A stretch of 34,745 bases of DNA from a virus: the IMG/VR virus record IMGVR_UViG_3300023210_000004; one strand, given 5' to 3'. Every line of letters starts with the position of its first letter. The first letter of the stretch is position 1. The position numbers and the translations under genes are program-made. Of the stretch, positions 1 to 34,745 are shown one piece after another. The notes under the pieces are model-generated. The model was not told the origin of the DNA. It searched no databases and saw only the letters and a list, made by a program, of their open reading frames with translations.

Positions 1-480
1 TAGGCCTTGGCAATGTGGCCACGCTGACCACAGGAGTGAGCAACGGCAATGTAATTGTAGCGGATGCAACTGGCCTTCCTGCTATCGATGGAAGTCAGCT
101 CACAGGAATCACTTCGACCGACTCAACTAAGCTCGCTATAGCTAACAACTTAAGCGACTTGAACAATGCAGTCACAGCGAGAACAAACTTAGGCCTTGGC
201 AATGTGGCCACGCTGACCACAGGAGTGAGCAACGGCAATGTAATTGTAGCGGATGCAACTGGCCTTCCTGCTATCGATGGAAGTCAGCTCACAGGAATCA
301 CTTCGACCGACTCAACTAAGCTCGCCATTGCTAACAACTTGAGCGATCTAAACAATGCAGTCACAGCAAGAACAAACTTAGGCCTTGGCAATGTCGCTAC
401 TCTTACGACAGGAGTGGCCAATGGCAACGTGATTGTAGCGGATGCAACGGGCCTTCCTGCCATCGATGGGAGCCAACTCT
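1..480 (+). repeat. Distal end of the 189-bp tandem coding repeat array (units start at 1, 190 and 379; the last unit is truncated)
   Basis: TAGGCCTTGGCAATG recurs at exactly 189-nt spacing. The unit at 1..189 is identical to those at 33854 and 34421. Confidence 0.95.
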
Positions 481-785
481 TAAACCTTCCAAGTGGTGGT
501 GGTGGTGGTGGCGGTGGCTTTACTTATTCAGCGATAACAAGTCTGGTCACTGCACAAGCTGAATATTATTACAGCTGTGATGGAACATTTACAGTTACAT
601 TGCCTGCTGCTTCAGGTATCACCGCAGGCAAAGAGATTAGAATAAAAAATATGGGAACAGGTACGATCACAATCGCTCGGTCTTCAACAGACACAATTGA
701 TGGTCAAACAAGCGCCGCTCTCGGTGTTCAGTATCAGATGCTAAGCTTTATCTCAAATGGTGTCGACGGTTATGAGGTGATCTAA
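1..785 (+). CDS. Tail fibre protein, 3' part. It continues 32053..34745 across the circular junction. Codon phase starts at nt 3 and the stop is TAA 783..785.
   Basis: nt 1..136 are identical to 34610..34745. The phase of the frame opened at 32053 matches the phase of the listed ORF 15..785. The region holds 63-aa repeats, then a Gly8 tract, then a beta-rich C-terminal tip (FTVTLPAASGITAGKEIRIKNMGTGTITI...). Confidence 0.8.
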   Translation, partial: GLGNVATLTTGVSNGNVIVADATGLPAIDGSQLTGITSTDSTKLAIANNLSDLNNAVTARTNLGLGNVATLTTGVSNGNVIVADATGLPAIDGSQLTGITSTDSTKLAIANNLSDLNNAVTARTNLGLGNVATLTTGVANGNVIVADATGLPAIDGSQLLNLPSGGGGGGGGFTYSAITSLVTAQAEYYYSCDGTFTVTLPAASGITAGKEIRIKNMGTGTITIARSSTDTIDGQTSAALGVQYQMLSFISNGVDGYEVI

Positions 786-2909: not shown

Positions 2910-3203
2910 ATGGATATGAACGCTCTTGATGTCGGAACTGTGATGGCCATTCTCGGAATCATCTTCAAGACGAGCCAGGACAAAGCTAGTTCAGCGGAAT
3001 CTCTTGGAAAGATGAAGCAACAGATTAAATCACTTGAAACAAGAATGGCCGCCAGTGATTCAAAGCTTAACGAGATTGATCAAAAGTTGGGGAAGCTAAT
3101 AGCCAGTATGACTCGACTTGAAACATTACTCGGTCAATCAAACATTCCTAGCGTATTAGAGACACCAGGGCCGCTCAAGAGTCAGCATTGGCAGTCAAGC
3201 TGA
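2910..3203 (+). CDS. Small membrane protein with an N-terminal TM segment and a coiled coil (i-spanin-like or holin-like architecture, uncertain)
   Basis: VGTVMAILGIIFK is followed by heptad-like KMKQQIKSLETRMAASDSKLNEIDQKLGKLIASMTRLETLL. The 3' end overlaps the convergent gene by 29 nt. Confidence 0.45.
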   Translation: MDMNALDVGTVMAILGIIFKTSQDKASSAESLGKMKQQIKSLETRMAASDSKLNEIDQKLGKLIASMTRLETLLGQSNIPSVLETPGPLKSQHWQSS

Positions 3204-4299
3204 TAAGGCCATGGTATCTTGACCAGTCATTCTTCTTCATATATCGAAGCGCTTTCCTGACTTCAGCAAGTGTATTCAATGAGACATCTTTAACATGATT
3301 ATTGATGAAGTTGCTATGTCTCAAGACTTCAACATAAGCAGGATCATTTAAGCGAGGGCCATAGATAGCAGGCGGGCACTCTTCTAGTATTGGATATTCA
3401 GCTACGAAAGCATTGTGTTGAGCTTCAATACTCTCTTGAATATCAGTCATCCACCATTCATCAACATATCCCCATGATTGGCGGATGACTCTATGAATGA
3501 TAGAAGAATAAAAAAAATCCTCTAGTTCTCTTGGTGTCATATCTGACAAGTCTAAACGCTTTCGATCAATCACACCTTGGACTTCTTCTTCACTGATATT
3601 GTGCTCATCAACAATCTCCCAAAACATCTCTTCACTTGAGAAAGTATAGAGCGGTTCACTCTTTGGTTTTGGTGGCGCTTGCTTGACTGGTGCTTGCTTG
3701 ACTGGTGCTTTACTCGGTCGCTGTTGGCGTTGTGGCGCTTCTTTCAAGTTCAAGTCTTCACCAAGTGATTCAGCTGATATCCTCGCTCTTTCATCATCAC
3801 TCATGTTTGTATTATCTGCGATCTCATCAGCTGAATAGATACCGCTAACAGCATCGGGATAAGTAGCTCTTAGGCCCATTGTCATACATCGGCTTCTTAA
3901 CATTTGGAGCGGCATAGTCTGCCAGTTCCTATTCCTAGTTAAGCCTTGAGCGCCTGCCATCTCCATCGTGTAAACATACTCATGTTTGATCTCCTTTGGC
4001 TCATCCTTTCGAGCGAAGATGATTCTACATAGTTGAGCGTTCCATTCTACAATCTGCCAATACCTAACGAGTCCAGAGTTGCGACAGATTCCCGCCATTG
4101 CATCAGCGCTTAATGATGGCTTACCCTTAAGACAGTAAGATTGAGTTTGAACCTTACCCATATCACCACCGAAGTGATGACCATGAGCGGCATGACATTT
4201 AAGAAGGTCGCGGGGGTTACGCTCATCAAGAAGAGTGGCAATCTCTTTGGCTTGATCAAGGTTAGCGGGCACGTAGATTGATTTATATATAGCATTCAT
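3175..4299 (-). CDS. Single-strand annealing recombinase (Red-beta/RecT-like) with a long C-terminal extension
   Basis: NWQTMPLQMLRSRCMTMGLRATYPDAVSGIYSADE closely mirrors the lambda Bet segment PWQSHPKRMLRHKAMIQCARLAFGFAGIYDKDE. An APVKQAPVKQAPPKP linker is followed by about 170 further residues. Confidence 0.65.
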   Translation of the reverse strand: MNAIYKSIYVPANLDQAKEIATLLDERNPRDLLKCHAAHGHHFGGDMGKVQTQSYCLKGKPSLSADAMAGICRNSGLVRYWQIVEWNAQLCRIIFARKDEPKEIKHEYVYTMEMAGAQGLTRNRNWQTMPLQMLRSRCMTMGLRATYPDAVSGIYSADEIADNTNMSDDERARISAESLGEDLNLKEAPQRQQRPSKAPVKQAPVKQAPPKPKSEPLYTFSSEEMFWEIVDEHNISEEEVQGVIDRKRLDLSDMTPRELEDFFYSSIIHRVIRQSWGYVDEWWMTDIQESIEAQHNAFVAEYPILEECPPAIYGPRLNDPAYVEVLRHSNFINNHVKDVSLNTLAEVRKALRYMKKNDWSRYHGLISLTANADS

Positions 4300-4327
4300 G
4301 TCAGTTTTCCTTTGTCAGTTTATTAGT
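4296..4327 (-). repeat. 32-nt leader element ACTAATAAACTGACAAAGGAAAACTGACATGA (read on the - strand), identical to 7745..7776 on the + strand
   Basis: Perfect 32/32 identity by direct comparison. It covers the upstream stop codon, the SD and the ATG of the annealing-protein gene. Confidence 0.9.
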
Positions 4328-4874
4328 TGATATTCATGTCAAGAAGGTCGGGAAGTTCTCGATAAGATCGGGCCGCTTTAAGACTTCGTTCCCAATCTGT
4401 CGAGTGAAGATCACACCAGGTTCTCACTTCATTATATCGAGCGGGATAAGATGAGTTAGTTAGTTGATGTACTTGGTAAGGTGAGAGTGTATCAATGACT
4501 CTGTTTGCACATTCATCGGCGGGCAAGTAGCCTCCATAATCTTTCAAGAGCGCCACCGCTGTGATGACGAATATGAATAAGCAAACGCCAATGGATAGGT
4601 CTTGTGCAATTTGTTCGTCTGGTATCATGTCAGTTCCCTTGCTTATGTTTATATTGTTTGCGAGTTCATAGTGCATTGCCACACATCGAGCGTTTAACAT
4701 TTGGCGTGAGTGAGACACCCAGGAGCCTTCTTTGTCTAGCTGTCTGTTGAGTTCATCTTCATATTGATCAACGTCATCTTGATCATCATTGTCATCATTG
4801 TCAGCTTGATCAGTGTCTTGTTTAGCTTTCTCTCTTAAGTACTCCATCCATGCATCAATACTATCAAACTTCAT
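4323..4874 (-). CDS. Hypothetical protein with an acidic N-terminus and one hydrophobic segment
   Basis: 183-aa ORF in the leftward operon. DNDDNDDQDD tract, TM-like LSIGVCLFIFVITAVALL. An internal in-frame ATG (4628..4626) carries the conserved early initiation motif. Confidence 0.55.
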   Translation of the reverse strand: MKFDSIDAWMEYLREKAKQDTDQADNDDNDDQDDVDQYEDELNRQLDKEGSWVSHSRQMLNARCVAMHYELANNINISKGTDMIPDEQIAQDLSIGVCLFIFVITAVALLKDYGGYLPADECANRVIDTLSPYQVHQLTNSSYPARYNEVRTWCDLHSTDWERSLKAARSYRELPDLLDMNIN

Positions 4875-5244
4875 CAGTAAGTCTCTTTGCTTTTATTAGT
4901 TTAACAATCTCTCTTTTCTGTTCAGTGGTGGCTTGCTCAAGACATAGCAATACTTTGTAAACAAACATAAAGCTTGTTTCGAGTTCTTTAGCGATGTGAT
5001 GGCAAAGGTCATTGATCACCTGGTCAAAGGCTTCATCTTCACCAGTGAAATCACTTTCATGAAAAGCTTCTTCTTCACCATAGAGAATATTTGCACACTC
5101 AGCCAAACGAGTCGCCAGCTCATGACTTGGCGTGTCTTTATTGTTTATGATCTTACTCAAGTAAACAGGATGACAAGCGCTCATCTCGGCAAGCGCTGAA
5201 AGCTTCACCCTTGTCTTTAGTTTCTTCTTCATCAGTCGCCTCAT
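4864..5244 (-). CDS. HTH (XRE/Cro-like) transcriptional regulator, first gene of the leftward operon
   Basis: VKLSALAEMSACHPVYLSKIINNKDTPSHELATRLAE fits the helix-turn-helix pattern. The gene faces the divergent control region. AGGAACTGACATG initiation motif. Confidence 0.6.
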   Translation of the reverse strand: MRRLMKKKLKTRVKLSALAEMSACHPVYLSKIINNKDTPSHELATRLAECANILYGEEEAFHESDFTGEDEAFDQVINDLCHHIAKELETSFMFVYKVLLCLEQATTEQKREIVKLIKAKRLTDEV

Positions 5245-5273
5245 GTCAGTTCCTTTCGTTAGGTATGCTTAAG

Positions 5274-5302
5274 TTATTAATGCCTTATGAAGCTCATGTC
5301 AA
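5274..5302 (-). promoter_or_regulatory. Candidate leftward early promoter: TTGACA, 17-nt spacer, TAATAA
   Basis: The - strand reads TTGACAtgagcttcataaggcatTAATAA, about 30 nt upstream of the HTH gene start. The -35 is perfect and the -10 is mediocre. Confidence 0.4.
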
Positions 5303-5358
5303 GAAAACTTAATATTAAATATAATAAATATTCTTATTGTTAAGTTTAATAAATAAGA

Positions 5359-5371
5359 GTACAACTTGTAC
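5359..5371. promoter_or_regulatory. Perfect 13-bp palindrome GTACAAcTTGTAC, candidate operator
   Basis: Read directly. It lies 27 nt upstream of the initiator ATG in the divergent intergenic region, and its right arm runs into GTACACC, which is an iteron half-site. Confidence 0.35.
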
Positions 5372-5397
5372 ACCTCTATATATAAAGGAGAACTGAC

Positions 5398-6000
5398 ATG
5401 AACGAGGGACAACTAACAGATAAGGTCATGGAGCGGCGTGATCTGCCACCGATGGCCAAGGTGATCATGAGAGCAATCATCAGACGAGTTGATTGGAAAA
5501 CATGGACAAGTAAAGAAGGTCACAAAGTCGTATCAACTAGAGAGCTCGCTCTTAAGTGTGGCACTACTAAGAAGACGGTCATTAAGAACATGGCTCGACT
5601 TGAGCAGGCTGGATTGATTCAGCGTGACTTCTTTAAGGCGAAACCAACACAAGCGCCACCAGTTCAAGTGTTGGTTGATAACATCTCAAACTATAATGGA
5701 GGTGTAGAAAGTACACCACAGGGGGGTGTAGAAAGTATACCACCTAGAGGTGTAGAAAGTATACCGCCTATGGTGGAGAAAGTACACCAGGGTGGTATAG
5801 AAAGTATACCACCTAGAGGTGTAGAAAGTATACCACTATCAATAAGGGACAATAGTAATACAATAATTAATACAATAAATTATACTACTGCCATTGACCC
5901 ATCGCTAGGAAGTGAGTGGGGTGTTAGCTCTAAAGAACTTTGGGGAGATGAGCTTGTTAATGGATTGAGTATTGTATCGAGTAAAGGGAAGAGCAAATGA
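5398..6000 (+). CDS. Replication initiator: winged-helix N-terminal domain, with the origin embedded in the coding sequence (lambda O-like arrangement)
   Basis: STRELALKCGTTKKTVIKNMARLEQAGLIQRD has an HTH pattern. Peptide repeats GGVESIPPR are encoded by the DNA iterons. A DnaC-like loader gene follows with an overlapping stop/start (ATGA). Confidence 0.6.
   Translation: MNEGQLTDKVMERRDLPPMAKVIMRAIIRRVDWKTWTSKEGHKVVSTRELALKCGTTKKTVIKNMARLEQAGLIQRDFFKAKPTQAPPVQVLVDNISNYNGGVESTPQGGVESIPPRGVESIPPMVEKVHQGGIESIPPRGVESIPLSIRDNSNTIINTINYTTAIDPSLGSEWGVSSKELWGDELVNGLSIVSSKGKSK
5701..5834. repeat. Six iterons, each an inverted repeat GGTGTA-GAAAG-TA(C/T)ACC; putative origin of replication
   Basis: Copies at 5701-5717, 5725-5741, 5749-5765, 5772-5788, 5794-5810 and 5818-5834, with a centre-to-centre spacing of 22-24 nt. 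Confidence 0.75.
5838..5893. promoter_or_regulatory. AT-rich block directly after the iterons (candidate DNA-unwinding element)
   Basis: atcaataagggacaatagtaatacaataattaatacaataaattatactact is markedly AT-rich compared with the flanks. Confidence 0.5.
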
Positions 6001-6923
6001 AGCGTTTAGGAGATGAAGTTGAAAAGATCACTTTCTATTTAGAAGAGTTGAAGAGAGTACGAAACGAGATACCAGCCACTCAAAAGCAAAAAAGAGTCTA
6101 TGAAGACTTTCGTCATTTGAATCACTCGAACCTTGAAGAGCATGACTGGGTGCTTTCACAAACTGCATACTTTAAAACAAAAGAAATCCCATACTGCGGC
6201 CGATGTGGAGAAGGCTTTATCTATTCTGTTGATGAGAATAGAAATAGGACAGCAAAGGTTTGTGACTATTGTGAGCGACCAAGAAGACGTTTAAAGCGTT
6301 TAAATGACTTACAGCTTCCTAAAGATGCCGAGGGCATGCACTTAGATCTTTATGAATGGGACAGTCAAGAGCAGTTTGAAAGAGTCAATGCTTTGGTCGA
6401 GTGGATGAACCTTACCAAGGAAGAGCGAGGTAAAGCAGTTTCTCCAAGTATTTATTTATGGGGATCGCCAGGCAATGGCAAAACATCAATACTCTATGCG
6501 CTCGCAAAATATGCAACGTTCAATGATCACAAAGTACACTTCACTTCACATACTCAGTTGATCGATCGAATCAAACGAACATTCAATGGCAAAGATGATA
6601 ATCCTCTTGAGCAGTGGTTAAGCCAAATCAACCTTTTGCTCTTTGATGAGTTCGGCGGGATTGGTGGAAGAGCTAATATGACAGACTGGTTTAAAAGCAT
6701 CACCGTAGATATTATACAAAGAATGTATGAGAGATGGGCGGCGGGTGAGCTCGCTATTGTCATGACAACTAATCTGACTCCTGAAGATCTATTCACTAAA
6801 GCACTCGACCAGAACAGAGCAAGCGCATCAAGGCTTCAAGCAATGTTCAAGCGACCTATCCATATGAAGGGCCATGACAGAAGAGCAGATAAGAAGGAAT
6901 TAACTTATTGGGGAGTGAGATAA
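5997..6923 (+). CDS. DnaC/IstB-like AAA+ helicase loader with an N-terminal zinc ribbon
   Basis: Walker A GSPGNGKTS, Walker B LLLFDEFG, and CGRCGEG...CDYCERP (CxxC...CxxC). Confidence 0.7.
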   Translation: MKRLGDEVEKITFYLEELKRVRNEIPATQKQKRVYEDFRHLNHSNLEEHDWVLSQTAYFKTKEIPYCGRCGEGFIYSVDENRNRTAKVCDYCERPRRRLKRLNDLQLPKDAEGMHLDLYEWDSQEQFERVNALVEWMNLTKEERGKAVSPSIYLWGSPGNGKTSILYALAKYATFNDHKVHFTSHTQLIDRIKRTFNGKDDNPLEQWLSQINLLLFDEFGGIGGRANMTDWFKSITVDIIQRMYERWAAGELAIVMTTNLTPEDLFTKALDQNRASASRLQAMFKRPIHMKGHDRRADKKELTYWGVR

Positions 6924-7107
6924 TTTATCTATCATCATCGCTGATAATCATCTATACTCTCTCCTGTAGGCCTTATTTATTTTAATACATGGACAGAAAT
7001 GGAAGTGTATAAGAAGATGAGCATCCTCTATTCAATGCAGGGGCCTACACTCTTATTGACTTCACAGGTAAGACATAGTACACCCACAAAAAGAAGGGAG
7101 TAACCAA

Positions 7108-7374
7108 ATGAGAAAACAGCCTTTAACAATCAAGCTTAATCAATCCACCAAGGATCAATTGGCTATACTTGCTGAGCGACATAAGCGAACATCGAGCGAT
7201 GTGGCCCGCTTATTATTGGAGTATAGCCTTGAAAAATACCGAAGATCTAAAGAAGGAAATAAAGCAGGCGTTGATTTACTTCGACTTTTGGAACTCTCAG
7301 AGACATCTCCCAACGGCAGCTCCCAACGGCAGCTCAGAGTGCTGATTACTTTTCAACTAGACTCAAACGATTAA
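7108..7374 (+). CDS. Ribbon-helix-helix (CopG/Arc-like) DNA-binding protein
   Basis: PLTIKLNQSTKDQLAILAERHKRTSSDVARLLLEYSL fits a beta-strand plus two helices. GGGAG SD. The 3' end carries a 13-bp tandem duplication. Confidence 0.5.
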   Translation: MRKQPLTIKLNQSTKDQLAILAERHKRTSSDVARLLLEYSLEKYRRSKEGNKAGVDLLRLLELSETSPNGSSQRQLRVLITFQLDSND

Positions 7375-7386
7375 GAGGAGAACTCA

Positions 7387-7743
7387 ATGGCAAGCATCAA
7401 CTTAATAACACTCATCGGGAAAGTAGTAGGCTACCCAAAACCACATCAAACGAAATACTCGAAATATTTGGAGGTGAAACTACAGACTGAAGACACTTGG
7501 AAAGTAGGTCAAGAATACAAGGTTGTCCCTGAGCAACACACTGTAAGACTTTATGGGAAGCTCGCTGAAGAAACTATTGGCGAGCTTGAACCTAATGATA
7601 GGATCTATGTTGAAGGCTCAATCAAGACAATCGAGAAAATGAAACACGTTAATGTGAGAACATATCGGCTAATGGCGAAGCGGTCACCTGGTGACCTACT
7701 ACCGCCTGATGTAACCATCGAGCCAAAAGGTAAATGGAACTGA
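7387..7743 (+). CDS. ssb: Single-stranded DNA-binding protein (OB fold), short form without an acidic tail
   Basis: MASINLITLIGKVVGYPKP...HTVRLYGKLAEE...DRIYVEGSIKT matches the canonical SSB N-terminal pattern (NkvxLiGnlgxdPe...vvxfgklAe...vyveGxl). Confidence 0.65.
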   Translation: MASINLITLIGKVVGYPKPHQTKYSKYLEVKLQTEDTWKVGQEYKVVPEQHTVRLYGKLAEETIGELEPNDRIYVEGSIKTIEKMKHVNVRTYRLMAKRSPGDLLPPDVTIEPKGKWN

Positions 7744-7744
7744 T

Positions 7745-7776
7745 ACTAATAAACTGACAAAGGAAAACTGACATGA
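7745..7776 (+). repeat. 32-nt leader element ACTAATAAACTGACAAAGGAAAACTGACATGA, inverted twin of 4296..4327
   Basis: Perfect identity to the reverse complement of 4296..4327. It covers TAATAA, the SD and the ATG of the GHKL ATPase gene. Confidence 0.9.
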
Positions 7777-9752
7777 TTAAAATGGAAGACAAGAACGTAA
7801 TCGCAGGACTTGAGCGAACTTACCGAACAATGAACCCCGCTCAATATGTAAGAGAGATCTATCAAAACAGCGTTGAGGCAGGTGCTCAAAATGTGCGCTT
7901 TACATATGACAAGCTAGCACAGCGAACCACAAGCATATATAAAGCCATTGGATTAGATGATGGCCCTGGTATTCCAAAAGATAAAATATTGGAACTTATC
8001 AACAATAAGAACAGCTCATCAAAAAAGGTTGGCGGAGAAGAAGACAACTTTGGAGTAGGCTTAAAAGTCTCAGCACTCCCAAGAAATCAATATGGTTTGA
8101 TTGTCTTATGCCAAACTAAAGAGCATCCAAGAGGCTTCATGATATGGATGGCCTATGATCAAAGCGAAGATGGAGAGAAGAGCGCTGGTGTTAAAGGACT
8201 AACAAGTGATGAATGTTGGCGCAGTCATTTAGATGAAGACGCTGAACTGTTCATTGACCATGTGGTGGACTTTCAAGAGGTAATAGATCGCCAATATGGA
8301 TCTTATGTAATTGATGGGATTGATTGGCTGAAGTGGTGGAGCATCAACAGGCTTAATAAAAAGCACACCACTGGTACAGCAGTAGTCATGCTTGGCAATC
8401 ATCCACAAGAAAACACTCTTGAACATTTGCAAACTAAAGGCACAGCTTTTTTAAGGTCAAGATATTTAACTTTTAACAATGTTCGACCTAATGTCCCTAA
8501 AACAGACGGGCGTGATATAATAGCCGATGGAGTGTCAACCTATAGAATAAATAACCCTATACAGGCACTATTAAAAAAGACTGTGCAAAGTTGGAAACTT
8601 AAACATAAAGAGTGGACTCTTTTGGTTTTTTTAAAAAAACCAGTAGAAAAGAGGGAAACCACTGCTGACCGTACACCGCTTATAAGTCAGAAGTTTACTG
8701 AGGCCACTGTTTATAAGAATGAACTTTATGGTGACTTTGAGACAATCACAGCACAATCAAGAGCGGCCTTAAGTCGATCATGGGGCCTTTGGTCAAAGAA
8801 GGTATCAAAGAGAATCACGCTATTGATTCAGCCACCAGCATACACGACAGAGACAAAGTGTGGTGTTTATCCAAATGAGGCAAGATCAACTCTATCTTGG
8901 AAAGATTCAGAAGAAGCGCAACCAACCACAACGCTTCCAATTGATGAACTAAAAGCTTTCTTTCAGAAGAATATGCCTGAAGAGATCAAAGATCTTTTGC
9001 TTGAAGTGGCGATTGAGGATCTAACAAATATTACAAAATCAAAGGCCGCTGAAGACTATGATAAGTGGTTAAAGATTCCAAAGGATGGCCGAAAGATTAA
9101 AGCAGGTAATGGTTTATTAATCTCACATTCATCAGGTGATCAACTTGGTGGTGACTCTATTGATGATCTATTTAATCCTAAGTCAGACCAAGAGTCTGTT
9201 GACTCTGACCTTAACCCGCCAAATCCACCAAAGCCACCAAAGCCACCGCTCACCAAAGAAGAGCTTGAACAGAAAGAAGCAAAGCGAAAAGCAAGGCAAG
9301 CGCAAGAAGCAAAGCGGAAAGAGTCTCCAACAGTACGCTTCATCAGACAAAGCAATGAAGACGCTGAAGGACGTTTTAAGTTAGATGGTATTTGGCAAGC
9401 GGCCTTTTATCAGCCTCCAAGCGTAAGCGGTGAGCAAGGTAATATTCTTTGGGTAAATCAAGACCATGATCTATTTCGTGGGTATGTTACCGCCGCTTAT
9501 GATGAGCTAGTGAAAAGAAAAACTCCAATGCCAAAAACCGCTATAGTTGAGCACGTTGTGAAGCCTTTTTGGGAAGAGTATGCACCTTGCGCAATTCAAC
9601 ACGCCAAAGGTCTTCCCAGTTCTAAGAAAGACAAAGACACGTTCTCACCCGAGCGTTTAACTTGGCTCTTCCTTGGATCAGTTCACTTCTTGTTTCCCAA
9701 GCTTCGTGAGTATTATAAAAAGTACTCTAGGATTGAAGATGCAATTGCATGA
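7773..9752 (+). CDS. GHKL-superfamily ATPase (MutL/MORC-like Bergerat fold) with a large uncharacterised C-terminal region
   Basis: Motif I REIYQNSVEAGAQNV (compare MutL ELVENSLDAGA), motif II LDDGPGI, motif III NFGVGLKVS. Pro/Lys linker PNPPKPPKPP and a KE-rich helix are followed by a further ~130-aa C-terminal region. Confidence 0.65.
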   Translation: MIKMEDKNVIAGLERTYRTMNPAQYVREIYQNSVEAGAQNVRFTYDKLAQRTTSIYKAIGLDDGPGIPKDKILELINNKNSSSKKVGGEEDNFGVGLKVSALPRNQYGLIVLCQTKEHPRGFMIWMAYDQSEDGEKSAGVKGLTSDECWRSHLDEDAELFIDHVVDFQEVIDRQYGSYVIDGIDWLKWWSINRLNKKHTTGTAVVMLGNHPQENTLEHLQTKGTAFLRSRYLTFNNVRPNVPKTDGRDIIADGVSTYRINNPIQALLKKTVQSWKLKHKEWTLLVFLKKPVEKRETTADRTPLISQKFTEATVYKNELYGDFETITAQSRAALSRSWGLWSKKVSKRITLLIQPPAYTTETKCGVYPNEARSTLSWKDSEEAQPTTTLPIDELKAFFQKNMPEEIKDLLLEVAIEDLTNITKSKAAEDYDKWLKIPKDGRKIKAGNGLLISHSSGDQLGGDSIDDLFNPKSDQESVDSDLNPPNPPKPPKPPLTKEELEQKEAKRKARQAQEAKRKESPTVRFIRQSNEDAEGRFKLDGIWQAAFYQPPSVSGEQGNILWVNQDHDLFRGYVTAAYDELVKRKTPMPKTAIVEHVVKPFWEEYAPCAIQHAKGLPSSKKDKDTFSPERLTWLFLGSVHFLFPKLREYYKKYSRIEDAIA

Positions 9753-9790
9753 TAATCGACATGCGACCGACAGCCACCAAAGGAGAAGCT

Positions 9791-10111
9791 ATGACTGATG
9801 ATGAACTACAAGCGTTTGTTTTAGATCTACACCATCGAAGCTTTAGCATTGATGACATAGCTCTTCAGATAACCAAAGAGCTTGGCATGGTGTTAAAGAT
9901 GGATGACGTGAAGAACATCTTGCAGTCTGCTATAGTGGGCGAAATGAATGTAATACGCGCGCGTGAAGAGCTTGTCTTGAAGTCACTTTGTGAGATCAAA
10001 AGGCGTCTTGTTGATCGTGACAACTCACCACTTCAAAAGGAAAGTGAAGCGCTTTATCAGACAATTCATTCAGTGATTGGAGAACATTATGGCTGGAAAG
10101 AAGCCAAATAA
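9791..10111 (+). CDS. Hypothetical protein (the ORF is open from 9749; ATG 9791 has AAGGAG 6 nt upstream)
   Basis: The ORF track plus SD placement. No recognisable motif. Confidence 0.5.
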   Translation: MTDDELQAFVLDLHHRSFSIDDIALQITKELGMVLKMDDVKNILQSAIVGEMNVIRAREELVLKSLCEIKRRLVDRDNSPLQKESEALYQTIHSVIGEHYGWKEAK

Positions 10112-10556
10112 GAAGCCAGGCAGGAAGCCAAGCAGGAAGCCAAAAGACCGAGCGGTTAGAGATAGTCTCTTGGAAAACTTACGTACTGGCATGACAGTCA
10201 AGGCAGCTTATACACAGTCAGGAGTCTCAGAGACAACTTACTATCGTTGGATATCAGATGATCAAGAGTGGGCTGAAGAAGTGGCGGCCGCTGTTCGCTT
10301 TAGTGAAGCGGTTATGCTTTCAAAGCTCGACCGCTGTGTAGATGATAAGATGGATTGGCGAGGATGGGCATGGCGTTTATCCAAAAGATTCCCTTTGGAG
10401 TATGGCGACTTAAAGCAGGTTGATCTTAACGTCACTAAACAATCCGATGGATCGGCTGAAGTCTTATCAATGATGAAACAGATTGAAGCGCTACATGCTA
10501 AAAACGAAACAACCTCATCACTAACAGCAGATAGTGATGAGGTCGGCCCTGGCTAA
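10089..10556 (+). CDS. Putative terminase small subunit (basic N-terminus plus HTH)
   Basis: KKPNKKPGRKPSRKPK, then GMTVKAAYTQSGVSETTYYRWISDD (HTH-like). It lies directly upstream of the large terminase. The ORF track start at 10077 is TTG, and ATG 10089 has GGAG upstream. Confidence 0.5.
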   Translation: MAGKKPNKKPGRKPSRKPKDRAVRDSLLENLRTGMTVKAAYTQSGVSETTYYRWISDDQEWAEEVAAAVRFSEAVMLSKLDRCVDDKMDWRGWAWRLSKRFPLEYGDLKQVDLNVTKQSDGSAEVLSMMKQIEALHAKNETTSSLTADSDEVGPG

Positions 10557-10571
10557 CAAAGGAGGCCTGAC

Positions 10572-10619
10572 ATGACACCCGTTGATAACTTCAATCAACA
10601 TAAGATAGATCATGACTGA
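10572..10619 (+). CDS. 15-codon leader ORF overlapping the large-terminase start (possible translational coupling device)
   Basis: AAAGGAGGCCTGACATG is a strong SD/ATG. ATG ACA CCC ... CAT GAC TGA ends at 10617..10619 and overlaps ATG 10612, which has no SD of its own. Confidence 0.35.
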   Translation: MTPVDNFNQHKIDHD

Positions 10620-11982
10620 CATCAAGCTAAATGAACTTCAACTAAACATCATCAGCGCTATCTCAAGACGAGATACGATAATTGCGGCGAGGTGTGGATG
10701 GGGTAGCGGTAAGACTTCAGCGCTTGTATTCTCCATCTTATTCTTGAGCAAGACAAGACCTGGCACGTCGTCACTATTAGTCACTGATACTACTCCAAGA
10801 TACAACTCTGTTTTAATGCCAGAGATGGAGAAGTGGCTGAATCCTCTTGGATGGACTTACAACCACACGCTTAAAAGATGGACTGATACAAACAACGGTT
10901 CAAGCGTTTGGTGTCGGTCGTATTATCGACCAGGCACAAGAGAAGCGACTCACAATCCACTGGAAGGATTGAATGTGACAAGTGGAGTCTGCTTGATCGA
11001 TGAATGTCAAACGCTCAATCAAGAGGTAGCTCACAAAGCTCTTGGTCGATTAAGAGCTGGGCCAAGTCCAATCTTGATTCTGGTTGGCCTGCCTGTGGTT
11101 GATGCGTGGTGGGTCAATATGTCAGAGAAGCAAGGACTAATCCCGCTCTTGTTCTCAAGCTATGTCAACCAAGACAATCTCGCTGATGAGTGGTTTGAAG
11201 CAACCAAGATGCTTCCACCTGATGAACGTGAAGCCATGATTATGAACAAGCCAAAACCACCGAGCGGATTGATCTACTCTGAGTTTACAGAAGCAAGTCA
11301 TGTTATCGATGGTTGGAGTTATAGAGAGAGCATGACTGGCAGGATTGCCATTGATTGGGGATTCAGGAAACCAAGTGTATTGATCATTTGCTATGATGAG
11401 CAACTTGAAGCATCCGTCATTTGTCATGAGATCAATCCAAGAGAAGTTACCACCGACCAACTAACAACTTTAATACTCGCCATTGCTTGGCCAAGGTCAC
11501 AGCGAGACAAAGCACCAGGGCCTAGAATATGGCTAGATGTTGGAGTGGCTGACAAGGCGGGCAAGGCTCGCAATGATCAAACAGGCCATTCAACTTTTAA
11601 GGTGATGAGACAAGACCCACCAAGAGGTCTTGGACTTCCTTTGAGATATGCTCTTGATCCTGTCAAGATTGATGTGCTCAACGGTATTCAAAGATTAAAG
11701 CGAGCGTTTAATGAGAAGCGGTATCTACTCACCAAGACGCTATGGGACAAAGGCGAAAGATCAGCGGGCAATAGTTTAAGGAAAGCACTTCTCTCTTACG
11801 GATGGGATAACAAAGAGCAGCCCAAGAAGGATGGCCGAGAAGACCCGCTTGACGCTCTTCGATATGACTGCATAACTTTTAACTGGAATGATAGTGCAGT
11901 AGATAAGAAGTACACACCACGCCGCCAAGGTGGCGGTAATAGAAAAGTTAAAGTTGGCGGATCAAAGGCAAGGAACTTTTAA
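10612..11982 (+). CDS. terL: Terminase large subunit
   Basis: Walker A CGWGSGKTS, Walker B-like VCLIDECQ. 456 aa, with a C-terminal nuclease-like region (IAIDWGF, DPLDALRYD). Its position is next to the head genes. Confidence 0.85.
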   Translation: MTDIKLNELQLNIISAISRRDTIIAARCGWGSGKTSALVFSILFLSKTRPGTSSLLVTDTTPRYNSVLMPEMEKWLNPLGWTYNHTLKRWTDTNNGSSVWCRSYYRPGTREATHNPLEGLNVTSGVCLIDECQTLNQEVAHKALGRLRAGPSPILILVGLPVVDAWWVNMSEKQGLIPLLFSSYVNQDNLADEWFEATKMLPPDEREAMIMNKPKPPSGLIYSEFTEASHVIDGWSYRESMTGRIAIDWGFRKPSVLIICYDEQLEASVICHEINPREVTTDQLTTLILAIAWPRSQRDKAPGPRIWLDVGVADKAGKARNDQTGHSTFKVMRQDPPRGLGLPLRYALDPVKIDVLNGIQRLKRAFNEKRYLLTKTLWDKGERSAGNSLRKALLSYGWDNKEQPKKDGREDPLDALRYDCITFNWNDSAVDKKYTPRRQGGGNRKVKVGGSKARNF

Positions 11983-12659
11983 TGAGAATAAATGTATACG
12001 ATGATAATATTGGTCATGTTCTATTGGTCGATAATATGGGTAATGACCTAAGAGCGGTTGAAAGTGCTAGAGTTAGTTTTCTACTCGACAGCTTAGACCA
12101 CACTGAACCAACTGACAGAGATAAGCGTTTACTTAAGTTCTTACTGAAAGAGGGCCATACTAGTCCTTTCGAGCATAGCGTGATCACCTTTCGTCTTCAC
12201 GTTCCTTTGTTTGTCAGGTCGCAAATTATGAGGCATAGAACCTTTTCTTATAATGAAGTATCAAGGCGATATACTAGCGAAGAACTTCAAGCGTTTATCC
12301 CTTCAACACTGAGAGCACAATCAAAGAAAAATCTACAATGCAGTGATGGCGAACTTGAAAACCATGACGTTCCACTTAAGAGAATGACTGAACACATTAA
12401 TGCTTCGCTCGCTTTATATAATCGTTTACTTGATACAGGTGTGGCAAGAGAACAAGCGAGAGCCATCTTGCCTCAAGCGATGTACACCACATTTTGGATG
12501 ACTGGTAACCTCCATAACTGGCTCAAGTTCTTTCGACTTCGTACCACTGATCACGCTCAAGAAGAGACTCGCCTAGTTGCTTTAGCTATCCAAGATATAA
12601 TGATGAAGCTATATCCAACCACGTTTGACATACTTAAACAGCTGAATGATCAAGAATAA
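11982..12659 (+). CDS. thyX: FAD-dependent thymidylate synthase ThyX
   Basis: The ThyX signature RHRxxSxxxxSxR is present as MRHRTFSYNEVSRRY. SPFEH motif. About 225 aa. Confidence 0.9.
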   Translation: MRINVYDDNIGHVLLVDNMGNDLRAVESARVSFLLDSLDHTEPTDRDKRLLKFLLKEGHTSPFEHSVITFRLHVPLFVRSQIMRHRTFSYNEVSRRYTSEELQAFIPSTLRAQSKKNLQCSDGELENHDVPLKRMTEHINASLALYNRLLDTGVAREQARAILPQAMYTTFWMTGNLHNWLKFFRLRTTDHAQEETRLVALAIQDIMMKLYPTTFDILKQLNDQE

Positions 12660-13101
12660 ACATATTAAAGTTAGGCTTGCTCAATGTGACTTAATCGCTA
12701 GCCTGTCCCCTTGCCCAAGACGCAAGGTGGGAGCATTGATCATTGATCCATCAACTAACGTTATTATAAGTGAAGGATATAATGGGACACCAAGAGGTTC
12801 AAAAGATCAGCTATGTGGTGGCGATGTATGCGAGCGAGAAGCTAAACACATTATAAGCGGATCACAGAATGATCTTGGCTGTCATCATGCTGAACTTAAC
12901 GCTATACTTAATGCCACCAGGACAGGCAACTCAACACTTGATAAGTGGATCATGACCAATTGCGATCCTTGTTTAATGTGCGCTAAAGCTATCCATCACG
13001 CTGGCATTGTTAAGGTCTACTGTCCAACATTAGCCAAAGGCGATCATCAAGAAGGCCTAACTTATCTTATTAAGAATGGCGTGACTCTTATATCTATTTG
13101 A
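12646..13101 (+). CDS. dCMP deaminase (cytidine/deoxycytidylate deaminase zinc-binding fold)
   Basis: CHHAELNAI (HAE) and PCLMCAKAI (PCxxC) zinc ligands. GYNGTPRG is typical of the dCMP deaminase/ComEB group. Confidence 0.85.
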   Translation: MIKNKHIKVRLAQCDLIASLSPCPRRKVGALIIDPSTNVIISEGYNGTPRGSKDQLCGGDVCEREAKHIISGSQNDLGCHHAELNAILNATRTGNSTLDKWIMTNCDPCLMCAKAIHHAGIVKVYCPTLAKGDHQEGLTYLIKNGVTLISI

Positions 13102-32052: not shown

Positions 32053-34745
32053 ATGGCTATTAAAACAGATACATTCACAGGCGGAGGCGGTGGCGGTGGC
32101 GGTGGTGCTGTCACTTCAGTCAATACGCAGACAGGCGCAGTCGTATTAAGCGGAAACGACCTTGTCGCAGATCATACCGCCGTCAACTATACCGCAGCAA
32201 ACGCTAATGTTGATGGTCACTTCTCAGGTATTGATACAAAGCTTGGCACGATTGCAAGCGGGTTAACATACAAGGGAGCGTTCAACGCAACAGCGGGGAC
32301 TCCATCGATTGCAAATGCTTTGCAAGGTGACCTTTATATCATCGACACAGCGGGGACAATCTATGGCCAAACATGGGCAATAGGTGACCATCTTTTAATT
32401 AATGCTGATATGGGCGGTTCAATCACTAATTCAAAGATTGATAAGATTGATAACACTGAACCAACTAATGTCTTAATCACTACTAACAACTTAAGTGATC
32501 TTGATAATGCTACGACAGCAAGAACAAACTTAGGCCTTGGCAATGTGGCCACGCTTGACACAGGTGTGGCCAACGGCAACGTAATCATTGCGGATGCCAC
32601 TGGTCTTCCTGTGATTGATGGTAGCCAATTGACAGGAATCACAGCGACTGACTCAACTAAGCTTGCCATTGCTAACAACTTGAGCGATCTAAACAACGCT
32701 ACGACAGCAAGAACAAACCTAGGTCTAGGCAATGTGGCGACACTCGACACAGGTGTGGCCAACGGCAACGTAATCATTGCGGATGCCACTGGTCTTCCTG
32801 TGATTGATGGTAGCCAATTGACAGGAATCACAGCGACTGACTCAACTAAGCTTGCCATTGCTAACAACTTAAGCGATCTAAACAACGCTACGACAGCGAG
32901 AACCAACTTAGGCCTTGGCAATGTGGCCACGCTGACCACAGGAGTGAGCAACGGCAATGTAATTGTAGCGGATGCAACTGGCCTTCCTGCTATCGATGGA
33001 AGTCAGCTCACAGGAATCACTTCGACTGATTCAACTAAGCTCGCTATCTTGAACAACTTAAGCGATCTAAACAACGCTACGACAGCGAGAACAAACTTAG
33101 GCCTTGGTAATGTCGCTACTCTTACAACTGGGGTTGCTAACGGTAACGTGATTGTAGCGGATGCAACTGGCCTTCCTGCTATCGATGGTTCACAGCTGAC
33201 AGGGATCACTTCGACCGACTCAACTAAGCTCGCCATCTTGAACAACTTAAGCGATCTAAATAATGCAGGCACAGCGAGAACAAACTTAGGCCTTGGCAAT
33301 GTCGCTACTCTTACGACAGGAGTGGCCAATGGCAACGTGATTGTAGCGGATGCAACGGGCCTTCCTGCCATCGATGGAAGTCAGCTCACAGGAATCACTT
33401 CGACTGATTCAACTAAGCTCGCTATCTTGAACAACTTAAGCGATCTAAACAACGCTACGACAGCGAGAACAAACTTAGGTTTAGGCAATGTGGCTACTCT
33501 TACGACAGGAGTGGCCAATGGCAACGTGATTGTAGCGGATGCAACGGGCCTTCCTGCTATCGATGGAAGTCAGCTCACAGGAATCACTTCGACCGACTCA
33601 ACTAAGCTCGCTATAGCTAACAACTTAAGCGACTTGAACAATGCAGTCACAGCGAGAACAAACTTAGGTTTAGGCAATGTGGCCACGCTGACCACAGGAG
33701 TGAGCAACGGTAACGTGATTGTAGCGGATGTAACGGGCTTGCCTGCCATCGATGGAAGTCAGCTCACAGGAATCACTTCGACTGACTCAACCAAGCTCGC
33801 CATCTTGAATAACTTGAGCGACCTGAATAATGCCACAACGTCAAGAACCAACTTAGGCCTTGGCAATGTGGCCACGCTGACCACAGGAGTGAGCAACGGC
33901 AATGTAATTGTAGCGGATGCAACTGGCCTTCCTGCTATCGATGGAAGTCAGCTCACAGGAATCACTTCGACCGACTCAACTAAGCTCGCTATAGCTAACA
34001 ACTTAAGCGACTTGAACAATGCAGTCACAGCGAGAACAAACTTAGGTTTAGGCAATGTGGCCACGCTGACCACAGGAGTGAGCAACGGTAACGTGATTGT
34101 AGCGGATGTAACGGGCTTGCCTGCCATCGATGGAAGTCAGCTCACAGGAATCACTTCGACTGACTCAACCAAGCTCGCCATCTTGAATAACTTGAGCGAC
34201 CTGAATAATGCCACAACGTCAAGAACCAACTTAGGCCTTGGCAATGTGGCCACGCTGACCACAGGAGTGAGCAACGGCAATGTAATTGTAGCGGATGCAA
34301 CTGGCCTTCCTGCTATCGATGGAAGTCAGCTCACAGGAATCACTTCGACCGACTCAACCAAGCTCGCCATCTTGAATAACTTGAGCGACCTGAATAATGC
34401 CACAACGTCAAGAACCAACTTAGGCCTTGGCAATGTGGCCACGCTGACCACAGGAGTGAGCAACGGCAATGTAATTGTAGCGGATGCAACTGGCCTTCCT
34501 GCTATCGATGGAAGTCAGCTCACAGGAATCACTTCGACCGACTCAACTAAGCTCGCTATAGCTAACAACTTAAGCGACTTGAACAATGCAGTCACAGCGA
34601 GAACAAACTTAGGCCTTGGCAATGTGGCCACGCTGACCACAGGAGTGAGCAACGGCAATGTAATTGTAGCGGATGCAACTGGCCTTCCTGCTATCGATGG
34701 AAGTCAGCTCACAGGAATCACTTCGACCGACTCAACTAAGCTCGC
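32053..34745 (+). CDS. Tail fibre protein, 5' part. The frame is open to the window end and continues at nt 1/137..785. The full length is about 1113 aa.
   Basis: AAGGAG lies 7 nt upstream of ATG 32053, and my manual translation found no stop through the N-terminal domain and the first repeats. The N-terminus reads MAIKTDTFTG9AVTSVNTQTGAVVLSGNDL... YKGAFNATAGTPS...GDLYII...GDHLLI, which are motifs common in phage fibres, followed by 63-aa repeats. It is absent from the ORF track only because it has no stop inside the window. Confidence 0.85.
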   Translation, partial: MAIKTDTFTGGGGGGGGGAVTSVNTQTGAVVLSGNDLVADHTAVNYTAANANVDGHFSGIDTKLGTIASGLTYKGAFNATAGTPSIANALQGDLYIIDTAGTIYGQTWAIGDHLLINADMGGSITNSKIDKIDNTEPTNVLITTNNLSDLDNATTARTNLGLGNVATLDTGVANGNVIIADATGLPVIDGSQLTGITATDSTKLAIANNLSDLNNATTARTNLGLGNVATLDTGVANGNVIIADATGLPVIDGSQLTGITATDSTKLAIANNLSDLNNATTARTNLGLGNVATLTTGVSNGNVIVADATGLPAIDGSQLTGITSTDSTKLAILNNLSDLNNATTARTNLGLGNVATLTTGVANGNVIVADATGLPAIDGSQLTGITSTDSTKLAILNNLSDLNNAGTARTNLGLGNVATLTTGVANGNVIVADATGLPAIDGSQLTGITSTDSTKLAILNNLSDLNNATTARTNLGLGNVATLTTGVANGNVIVADATGLPAIDGSQLTGITSTDSTKLAIANNLSDLNNAVTARTNLGLGNVATLTTGVSNGNVIVADVTGLPAIDGSQLTGITSTDSTKLAILNNLSDLNNATTSRTNLGLGNVATLTTGVSNGNVIVADATGLPAIDGSQLTGITSTDSTKLAIANNLSDLNNAVTARTNLGLGNVATLTTGVSNGNVIVADVTGLPAIDGSQLTGITSTDSTKLAILNNLSDLNNATTSRTNLGLGNVATLTTGVSNGNVIVADATGLPAIDGSQLTGITSTDSTKLAILNNLSDLNNATTSRTNLGLGNVATLTTGVSNGNVIVADATGLPAIDGSQLTGITSTDSTKLAIANNLSDLNNAVTARTNLGLGNVATLTTGVSNGNVIVADATGLPAIDGSQLTGITSTDSTKL
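32482..34745 (+). repeat. Tandem 189-bp coding repeat array (about 12 units here; it continues at 1..480)
   Basis: Unit boundaries lie at 32531, 32720, 32909, 33098, 33287, 33476, 33665, 33854, 34043, 34232, 34421 and 34610, all exactly 189 nt apart. Confidence 0.95.

Follow-up and report, generated by a model that had tools for sequence, protein, structure and literature searches.

A start-associated leader cassette at early genes and gene-swap joints in a lineage of uncultured marine phages

Results

The sequence analyzed here is a viral DNA of 34,745 nucleotides (IMG/VR record IMGVR_UViG_3300023210_000004), and "the window" refers to this whole stretch at its full length. Its early region is centered on a divergent promoter region (5245-5397). 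Leftward from there lie a helix-turn-helix (HTH) regulator gene (4864-5244), an open reading frame (ORF) at 4323-4874 and a gene for a RecT-like single-strand annealing protein; rightward lie, in order, a Rep initiator gene with internal iterons, a DnaC-like loader gene, an Arc-like gene (7108-7374), the SSB gene, a GHKL ATPase gene, a gene for a 116-120-aa protein, TerS, TerL and the late genes. The RecT-like and GHKL genes share the same 32-nt leader, ACTAATAAACTGACAAAGGAAAACTGACATGA, and this element is the subject of the present study. The gene labels of the original prediction, annealing recombinase and GHKL ATPase, are acceptable, as both Pfam matches score above cut-off (RecT, 24.8 bits against a cut-off of 24, with a PHROG RecT-like match at E=3.6e-20; HATPase_c_3, 26.3 bits against a cut-off of 25). 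Apart from its Pfam ATPase domain, the GHKL protein had no match in PDB, PHROG, NCBIfam or PADLOC. The phage has no evident exonuclease to pair with the RecT-like protein.

The element is present in exactly two copies in the window, each the exact reverse complement of the other over 32 of 32 positions (Table 1), and no other copy was found at up to 3 mismatches. It is the longest and the sole perfect long inverted repeat of the window; the copies lie 3417 nt apart, and identity between them ends at 32 nt on both flanks. Chance had been discounted as the origin of the match, and this was borne out by 100 dinucleotide-preserving shuffles, none of which contained such a match; the same shuffles rule out low complexity as a source of the repeat. 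Each copy is in sense orientation to its local genes and contains two ACTGACA boxes, a Shine-Dalgarno (SD) sequence, AAGGAAAA, and the ATG of the downstream ORF. Two divergent operons thus share the same translation-initiation region, as originally proposed, by way of an identical 32-nt leader.

The proposal that both copies also contain the stop codon of the upstream gene held for the minus copy, with a TAA at 4325-4323 followed by a second TAA, and failed for the plus copy. There the SSB stop is a TGA (7741-7743) located 2 nt upstream of the element, and the TAATAA at 7747-7752 is unused as a stop. SSB terminates at that TAATAA in relatives that lack a 6-nt insertion (L001, L146 and L170; L numbers denote related contigs; many marine contigs of this lineage are present in IMG/VR and JGI metagenomes). 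A degenerate third box, AACTGAT, sits in this insertion, and the boxes of the window are spaced 14 nt apart (7738, 7752, 7766). The TAA, TAA, TGA and TGA triplets of the 32-mer shut all three reading frames before the ATG, and ATGA forms an overlapping stop; such frame-closing stops would serve translational coupling.

Shorter forms of the element stand at other gene starts. The sequence ACTGACATG precedes five start codons in the window, those of the RecT-like (4299, minus), GHKL (7773, plus), Rep (5398, plus) and HTH (5244, minus) genes and an internal ATG at 4628 (minus), and a micro-ORF at 10572-10619 begins at CTGACATG. The leader is not private to the recombinase and the ATPase, since CTGAC-ATG also starts Rep, HTH, a 101-aa gene (at the internal ATG) and the micro-ORF. 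We regard the 32-mer as the longest form of a clade-specific cassette in which the upstream ACTGACA box is optional. From base composition the probability of CTGAC is ~8e-4 per start, giving ~0.03 expected among ~39 starts, and 5-6 were observed. The heptamer ACTGACA occurs 16 times, compared to 6.6 +/- 2.4 in shuffles, and 0/100 shuffles reach 16. Every leader copy is sense-oriented, with its last box in fixed register with the ATG; the other ACTGACA copies are intragenic, on both strands and near the background count. The significance of the cassette stems from its position and not from its raw count. Late genes have ordinary, varied SD-ATG spacers, and no leader-type site lies 3' of 10574, that is, none in the 21-kb late operon. 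The leader of the SSB gene itself, GGAGAACTCAATG, resembles a decayed cassette.

Two of these starts have a context of their own. The 183-aa ORF at 4323-4874 (minus) resembles an in-frame fusion, of which the last 101 aa are hydrophobic (MIPDEQ...). In 8/8 relatives the 101-aa part is a separate gene with a CTGACATG start, and stop codons precede it in other subclades; the acidic N-terminal 82 aa were found in the closest relative only. The micro-ORF overlaps the TerL start (ATG 10612), which has no SD, and its stop TGA overlaps that start (ATGACTGA). This arrangement suggests that TerL may be translated through coupling to the micro-ORF. Relatives retain a pre-TerL micro-ORF of 11-26 codons, the peptide sequence of which is not conserved.

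The distribution of the motif was surveyed at loci picked by TerL similarity alone, which avoids ascertainment by the motif; conservation of a 29-nt core in nine haplotypes was discarded as evidence, because those sequences had been selected by that core. The pattern of an SD, 1-4 nt and CTGACATG recurs across the clade (TerL 77-100% identical), in agreement with the conservation that had been expected. It was found at the 101-aa gene in 8/8 genomes despite 34-45% protein identity, at Rep in 6/8 genomes, with TTGAC in one further genome, and at the locus downstream of SSB in 7/8 genomes, irrespective of the resident gene. Small leftward genes and the pre-TerL micro-ORF in relatives also carry it. 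In total 15 protein families start at CTGACATG, 12 of which are genuine SD-preceded gene starts, and in every genuine instance CTGAC directly adjoins the ATG, with the SD 6-10 nt away from that codon. Some relatives (L042, L045, L167 and L168) have 2-4 tandem ACTGACA boxes with an 8-nt period 5' of the SD. Outgroups with orthologous early genes (L005, L028, L033-L040 and those with TerL <=76%) have ordinary initiation regions, as illustrated by a 101-aa orthologue that starts at AAAGGACCACAACATG. On the basis of these outgroups, the motif is clade-specific and selected, and not a general property of these genes.

Searches beyond the clade returned little. A double-box scan of viral contigs gave 61 matches, and outside the clade none had several SD-preceded CTGACATG gene starts; those matches are isolated or chance. 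Megablast of window positions 3000-10200 against GenBank phages gave no match, and a tblastn search for cultured relatives gave only <32% identity with TerL and none with GHKL. No prophage was seen in two scans of genome contigs, which used the TerL protein and a TerL alignment, respectively, and no publication linking ACTGACA with phage was found in a literature search.

The element had also been proposed to mark joints of module exchange, and this proved correct for the plus copy: in near-isogenic relatives the gene 3' of it is replaced, with the joint directly after the element. Homology of L002/L144 and L170 to the window reaches 7781, taking in the cassette plus ATGATTAAA, and starts again at 9761. 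In L002, L144 and L170 the GHKL gene is swapped for an HNH endonuclease gene (Pfam HNH_5, E=7.5e-7) and a 156-aa ORF, and L158 has a third alternative, a 223-aa ORF, with the same joints. In the 2191 bp upstream, L146, which carries GHKL, and L170, which carries HNH, are 99.77% identical; the final 386 nt are free of mismatches, and divergence begins exactly after ATGATTAAA. The HNH allele is also found on another SSB haplotype, 57 mismatches away. At the right-hand joint, the likely start of the gene after GHKL is either the ATG at 9761, preceded by GACATG, or an SD-preceded ATG near 9792, not the ATG at 9749; in relatives without GHKL, homology to the window picks up exactly at 9761.

In other subclades the locus 3' of SSB holds a nuclease-like family with an invariant D...ExK motif. 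This label comes solely from a weak profile match to PDB 2eo0 (E=0.19), which we take to be an archaeal Holliday-junction resolvase, and is a lead only. The hypervariable locus was compared in the window, L002, L158, L010, L012, L024, L031, L045 and L175. A specific recombinase-ATPase link, one suggestion of the original prediction, was not upheld, as in relatives the same leader serves the HNH endonuclease, the 223-aa protein or the D..ExK nuclease-like protein instead. Genes of the variable locus may be recombination partners or accessory/anti-defence genes.

Joints at cassettes are also seen elsewhere. An additional 95-aa gene, preceded by a double-box leader of its own, is present in L001 and L177 and has its joint at the HTH cassette (window 5255/5256), and in L003 a C5 cytosine DNA methyltransferase gene (GGFPCQPFS motif) is inserted directly after the pre-TerL CTGACATG. 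At the 3' end of TerS, just 5' of the pre-TerL CTGACATG, a hairpin with a conserved GGGAGAAC loop was observed in L012, L013, L020, L022, L024, L026 and L029, with compensatory changes in relatives at 7/15 pairs. The window has a different, 14-bp hairpin there (10510-10545), the minus strand of which resembles an intrinsic terminator.

The two leaders were further compared within genomes. In L001 the RecT leader differs from the GHKL-site leader by 2 substitutions and 1 deletion, and in L150, L151 and L157 the two are likewise near-identical, not identical; in L151 they differ by 1 indel. Because of these near-identical pairs, both copies appear to be ancestral, with the window and L177 representing the perfect case. 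In L031, a member of another subclade, a perfect 21-nt sequence, AACTGACAAGGAGAACTGACA, is common to the same two loci and the inter-box sequence is different; between the 102-aa gene leader and that of the variable locus, identity in L042 and L045 is 91-95% over 21-23 nt. Leaders are more alike within one genome than to their own orthologues. The leader pairs thus evolve in concert, whether through gene conversion or shared constraint.

A common RNA structure, offered earlier as one basis for co-regulation, was rejected. The 76-nt leaders are essentially unfolded, with minimum free energies (MFE) of -2.8 and -0.8 kcal/mol and z-scores of 0.05 and +1.54, and Rfam identified no RNA family in the window. 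Initiation regions bearing the cassette rank 1, 2, 5 and 7 of 36 in predicted unpaired probability, and the RecT initiation region has an MFE of 0.0.

Discussion

Based on these results, we propose with a probability of roughly 0.6 that the 32-mer belongs to a standardized start-associated cassette that would act on mRNA as an initiation and coupling module, and on DNA as micro-homology for gene swaps and for homogenization of its copies. The cassette has the layout (stop codons)-ACUGACA-AAGGA-(A)CUGAC-AUG(A), where AAGGA is the SD and (A)CUGAC is fused to the start codon. On mRNA it is most likely a standard, unstructured and highly accessible translation-initiation module, and the closure of all frames just before the start would suit termination-reinitiation coupling. 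The invariant CUGAC between the SD and AUG implies a sequence-specific reader; candidates are the ribosome or an initiation factor, another factor of the host, or one encoded by the phage. That the constrained part is the 5 nt between SD and AUG argues that something reads the spacer, and since CTGAC is under clear purifying selection, the suggested co-regulation by a common trans-acting factor is plausible. The 8-nt spacing of the tandem boxes would suit recognition of single-stranded RNA better than binding of duplex DNA. On DNA, ~20-37 nt common to several loci and to co-circulating relatives would provide micro-homology for gene swaps, probably by homologous recombination, for which the phage's own RecT-like annealing protein is the candidate enzyme. 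The copies would also homogenize one another, which could account for two leaders that are identical at 32/32 positions. In sum, we have documented that the cassette exists, how it is distributed and oriented, its register with the starts, its conservation, its lack of structure and the joints that fall on it, whereas a translational function, the identity of a reader and the mechanism of recombination are inferences.

It is important to realize that several points weigh against this proposal. The bare CTGACATG count is modest, at 6 against 1.94 in shuffles, and 2/100 shuffles reach 6. In several relatives the pre-TerL CTGACATG has no adjacent SD, which indicates that the motif is not merely an SD spacer, and the cassette may have a role at the DNA level. 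No phage gene's presence tracks the motif among the relatives compared, so a dedicated phage-encoded reader is not indicated, and the searches turned up neither a cultured relative nor a prophage that would point to a host. Finally, illegitimate recombination followed by selection, or homing by HNH, can also place joints at gene boundaries; such homing, and not exchange through the cassette, could explain part of the GHKL/HNH polymorphism.

Other explanations for the motif differ in what would read it. One that refines the standardized cassette, and that we advance tentatively, is a translational operator, in which ACUGACA repeats by the SD and AUG would bind a phage or host RNA-binding regulator that switches an early regulon on or off as a unit, as T4 RegA does at the initiation regions of early mRNAs or TRAP at repeated triplets. 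Strong purifying selection on CTGAC whatever gene follows, tandem boxes at 8- and 14-nt periods, the unstructured leader RNA and the confinement of the motif to early genes are each consistent with such an operator. However, no candidate RNA-binding protein was identified, the presence of no early gene correlates with the motif, and the first and last genes of both operons carry the motif alike, so that the regulatory logic is not obvious. A possible, though doubtful, extension is a novel sequence-specific translational control of an early-gene regulon throughout a widespread clade of marine phages, with the ACUGACA repeats and CUGAC-AUG as operator and a host or phage reader, whose cassette would also serve RecT-type gene swaps. 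It is unlikely that the sites are instead a DNA operator or "stoperator", where a phage repressor on duplex (C/T)TGACATGA and ACTGACA sites would block promoters and, depending on orientation, elongating RNA polymerase. The sites indeed lack symmetry and share the direction of transcription in both divergent operons; between the HTH and Rep cassettes, TTGACATGA overlaps the leftward promoter's -35 hexamer (5296-5304), and in L012 and L031 this intergenic region has three TGATGTCAA repeats, yet the promoter-region likeness is perhaps just the TTGACA -35 consensus. Moreover, in every family the position of the last box relative to the ATG is fixed to the nucleotide, the spacing of tandem boxes is 8 bp, and the 21-kb late operon is free of sites after the pre-TerL site. 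L005 has an HTH orthologue without the motif, and L012 and L031 keep the motif without an HTH orthologue detectable by tblastn; the latter counterpoint is weak, as blastp of called ORFs, itself weaker, gave a short HTH-like ORF in both (38-46% identity).

The remaining alternatives give the motif no reader, or a reader other than a regulator. It seems rather improbable that the leaders lack any sequence-specific function and are ordinary ribosome-binding sites made alike by gene conversion or acquisition, with the 32/32 match as a recent conversion tract. Concerted evolution of the leader pair would fit this, and the window RecT leader differs from that of L150/L151 by about one homopolymer A and one substitution, placing perfect identity 1-2 steps away. 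In contrast, CTGAC is kept at orthologous starts whose proteins are 34-45% identical, and before unrelated genes, while the upstream architecture drifts; neutral spacers would have diverged, and the outgroups show such drift. We consider it very improbable that the copies are joints which flip 4328-7744 and swap the operons feeding RecT and the ATPase, as the original prediction had also raised. The repeats are perfect, inverted and 3417 nt apart, and both operons would stay intact since each copy forms a full leader; the phage has a RecT-like annealing protein of its own, and the pair is homogenized within genomes, hence the copies interact. Nevertheless, a metagenome-wide scan found 0/17 assembled contexts to be recombinant and all to be parental, a figure that concerns assembled contexts, as assembled contigs cannot reveal rare inversions. 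The end of the 101-aa gene precedes 5/5 recovered RecT starts as well as that of the window, and the end of SSB precedes 12/12 'MIK' starts; Pfam detected no invertase, integrase, recombinase or resolvase domain in 36 window ORFs (two short late ORFs were unscanned), and 32 nt is marginal for efficient homologous inversion. Even less credible is a sigma-70-type promoter in each leader with CTGACA as its -35 hexamer. The sole match in the GHKL leader, CTGACA-18 nt-TAAAAT at 7754-7783, fits 10/12 positions, but its putative -10 falls within codons 2-4, is gone in the HNH and 223-aa variants and is missing from the RecT copy; its transcript would be without SD and ATG, and promoter-like matches in the region are fewer than in shuffles (7 vs 15.5). 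The promoter was therefore rejected as misplaced and not conserved. Primase or strand-orientation signals were also rejected, as the fixed ATG register speaks against them, as were LexA, CRP or sigma-54 sites, whose sequences do not fit; MazF-type ACA cleavage giving leaderless mRNAs was set aside.

The closest analogue of the cassette appears to be the start-associated sequence (SAS/ESAS) of Cluster K mycobacteriophages, a 13-bp asymmetric SD-containing motif located 3-7 bp from non-structural gene starts (Pope et al. 2011, PMC3203893). The SAS is conserved before different gene families (PMC3203893), and its function was still unverified in 2025 (PMC12699233). By analogy, the cassette would work like the SAS without being a member of it by sequence. 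Both are short asymmetric motifs with an SD core at the start codons of a subset of genes; both are conserved across sub-lineages before different families, sometimes overlap the upstream stop and often have an extra upstream element. As with the SAS, copies of the cassette have essentially one orientation and lie at non-structural genes only, apart from the micro-ORF at the early/late boundary; their SD/start placement is fixed, with CTGAC abutting the ATG. In contrast, the cassette, ACTGACAAAGGAAAACTGACATG, does not match the 13-bp SAS consensus GGGATAGGAGCCC (<=2 deviations) beyond the GGA core, its order being ACTGACA-AAGGA-ACTGACATG. What is conserved here is an SD-to-ATG spacer fused to the ATG, whereas the SAS is SD-flanking sequence 3-7 nt upstream, and the upstream element is a direct heptamer repeat rather than a 17-bp inverted repeat. 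The copy number per genome is 6-7 here compared to 11-19, and the phages are marine, uncultured and of Gram-negative type, with copies at gene-swap joints.

Similarly, T4-type phages have PeSL cassettes, composed of an early sigma-70 promoter and a terminator stem-loop (Arbiol et al. 2010, PMC2839356; PMC4122927). These are also short conserved cassettes repeated between early and accessory genes, where recombination explains insertions, deletions and replacements among close relatives; here cassettes hold the joints at which GHKL, HNH and the 223-aa ORF are swapped, the 95-aa gene is gained or lost and the methyltransferase gene is inserted. The present cassette differs in having no conserved promoter or stem-loop terminator, and is instead a translational unit of stop, SD and start.

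The gp71 repressor of L5 acts at 13-bp stoperators. The L5/Cluster A sites are presented in PMC3203893, citing Brown et al. 1997, as short, asymmetric and placed within very small intergenic gaps. Like them, the cassette sites follow the direction of transcription in both arms, and one related site lies at an early promoter. L5 sites differ in that they are found genome-wide including late genes, whereas leader-type sites end at 10574; they also have no fixed start-codon register and are bound by a known repressor, while the repressor type here does not co-vary with the motif, though weak HTH-like ORFs exist in L012 and L031. Unlike inversion systems of the Hin/Gin/Cin type, no serine recombinase was found in the 36 Pfam-scanned ORFs, and 0/17 assembled contexts are inverted. 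T4 RegA and B. subtilis TRAP each illustrate how one factor can bind many unrelated mRNA initiation regions, or repeats near the SD, and occlude the ribosome-binding site; RegA sites are degenerate and A/U-rich, and TRAP sites are (G/U)AG triplets. Of such systems the cis side only is seen here, as a conserved, unstructured, repeated motif at initiation regions.

In the modular theory put forward by Botstein in 1980, and for the lambdoid boundary sequences described by Clark et al. in 2001, short gene-boundary linkers, conserved between modules that are otherwise unrelated, are said to have been proposed as sites of homologous exchange. Here, by contrast, the linker doubles as a full translation-initiation region under strong constraint, and a single genome uses it repeatedly. 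If the doubtful extension to a novel translational control were true, the cassette would be a combined expression-and-exchange standard part, through which ATPase, HNH and nuclease-like genes are swapped between co-infecting relatives. The two near-isogenic genomes that differ only in the gene behind a shared 37-nt cassette, together with the paired leaders that evolve in concert within genomes, are unusually clean evidence for the linker model. The cassette is also an independent marine-phage case of a start-associated motif, unrelated in sequence to the mycobacteriophage ones. In practical terms, it flags a hypervariable accessory locus downstream of SSB and is a candidate for a portable, unstructured, strong initiation region.

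Additional features of the window

Coordinates of the cassettes, of the genes that flank them and of the exchanged segments are collected in Table 1.

Table 1. Cassette copies, boxes, associated genes and exchanged segments (window coordinates unless indicated).
Feature	Position	Strand	Remarks
Copy A	4296..4327	-	Serves the RecT-like gene; holds the upstream ORF's TAA-TAA stops, box 1, SD, box 2 and ATGA
Copy B	7745..7776	+	Leader of the GHKL ATPase gene
Upstream ACTGACA box, copy A	4313..4319	-	
Start-abutting ACTGACA box, copy A	4299..4305	-	Final A is the A of the RecT ATG
Upstream ACTGACA box, copy B	7753..7759	+	
Start-abutting ACTGACA box, copy B	7767..7773	+	
Degenerate third box AACTGAT	7738..7744	+	14 nt 5' of box 1; contains SSB stop TGA 7741-7743
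Short form AAAGGAACTGACATG	5242..5256	-	Start of HTH regulator gene 4864-5244
Short form AAAGGAGAACTGACATG	5384..5400	+	Start of Rep initiator gene 5398-6000
Short form AAGGGAACTGACATG	4626..4640	-	Internal ATG 4628 of ORF 4323-4874; start of the 101-aa gene
Short form AAAGGAGGCCTGACATG	10558..10574	+	Starts 15-codon micro-ORF 10572-10619
RecT-like single-strand annealing protein gene	3175..4299	-	Pfam RecT, PHROG; leader is copy A
GHKL (HATPase_c_3) ATPase gene	7773..9752	+	Pfam; leader is copy B
SSB gene	7387..7743	+	3' end abuts copy B
Replaceable module	7782..9760	+	Left joint after cassette plus ATGATTAAA; right joint is the next gene's ATG (9761)
Methyltransferase insert of L003	L003 3899-5070		Between TerS and TerL; window equivalent 10557-10601

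In the divergent promoter region, a putative leftward promoter (TTGACA 5303-5298, 17 nt, TAATAA) and a putative rightward promoter (ATGTCA 5296-5301, 18 nt, TATAAT) have -35 hexamers that overlap back to back (window 5275-5325). A 13-bp palindrome, GTACAACTTGTAC, lies at 5361-5373, just 5' of the Rep cassette; L012 and L031 have their three TGATGTCAA repeats here instead. Inside the Rep initiator gene, iteron-like direct repeats of ~24 nt (GGTGTAGAAAGTATACCACC...) occupy 5695-5834 and are a probable origin of replication inside rep, as in lambda O.

A tandem array of 189-nt repeats is present at both ends of the window (1-514 and 32483-34745; ~12-15 copies, 76-100% identical), and a repeat-rich fibre-like gene therefore runs across the window ends. 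The occurrence of the same array at both ends makes it likely that the window represents an entire genome of ~34.7 kb in circularly permuted form. Between TerL and a Mu-type portal gene, positions 11982-13101 encode ThyX (Pfam Thy1, E=3.5e-51) and a dCMP deaminase (E=7.7e-20), a nucleotide-metabolism pair within the packaging and morphogenesis block.

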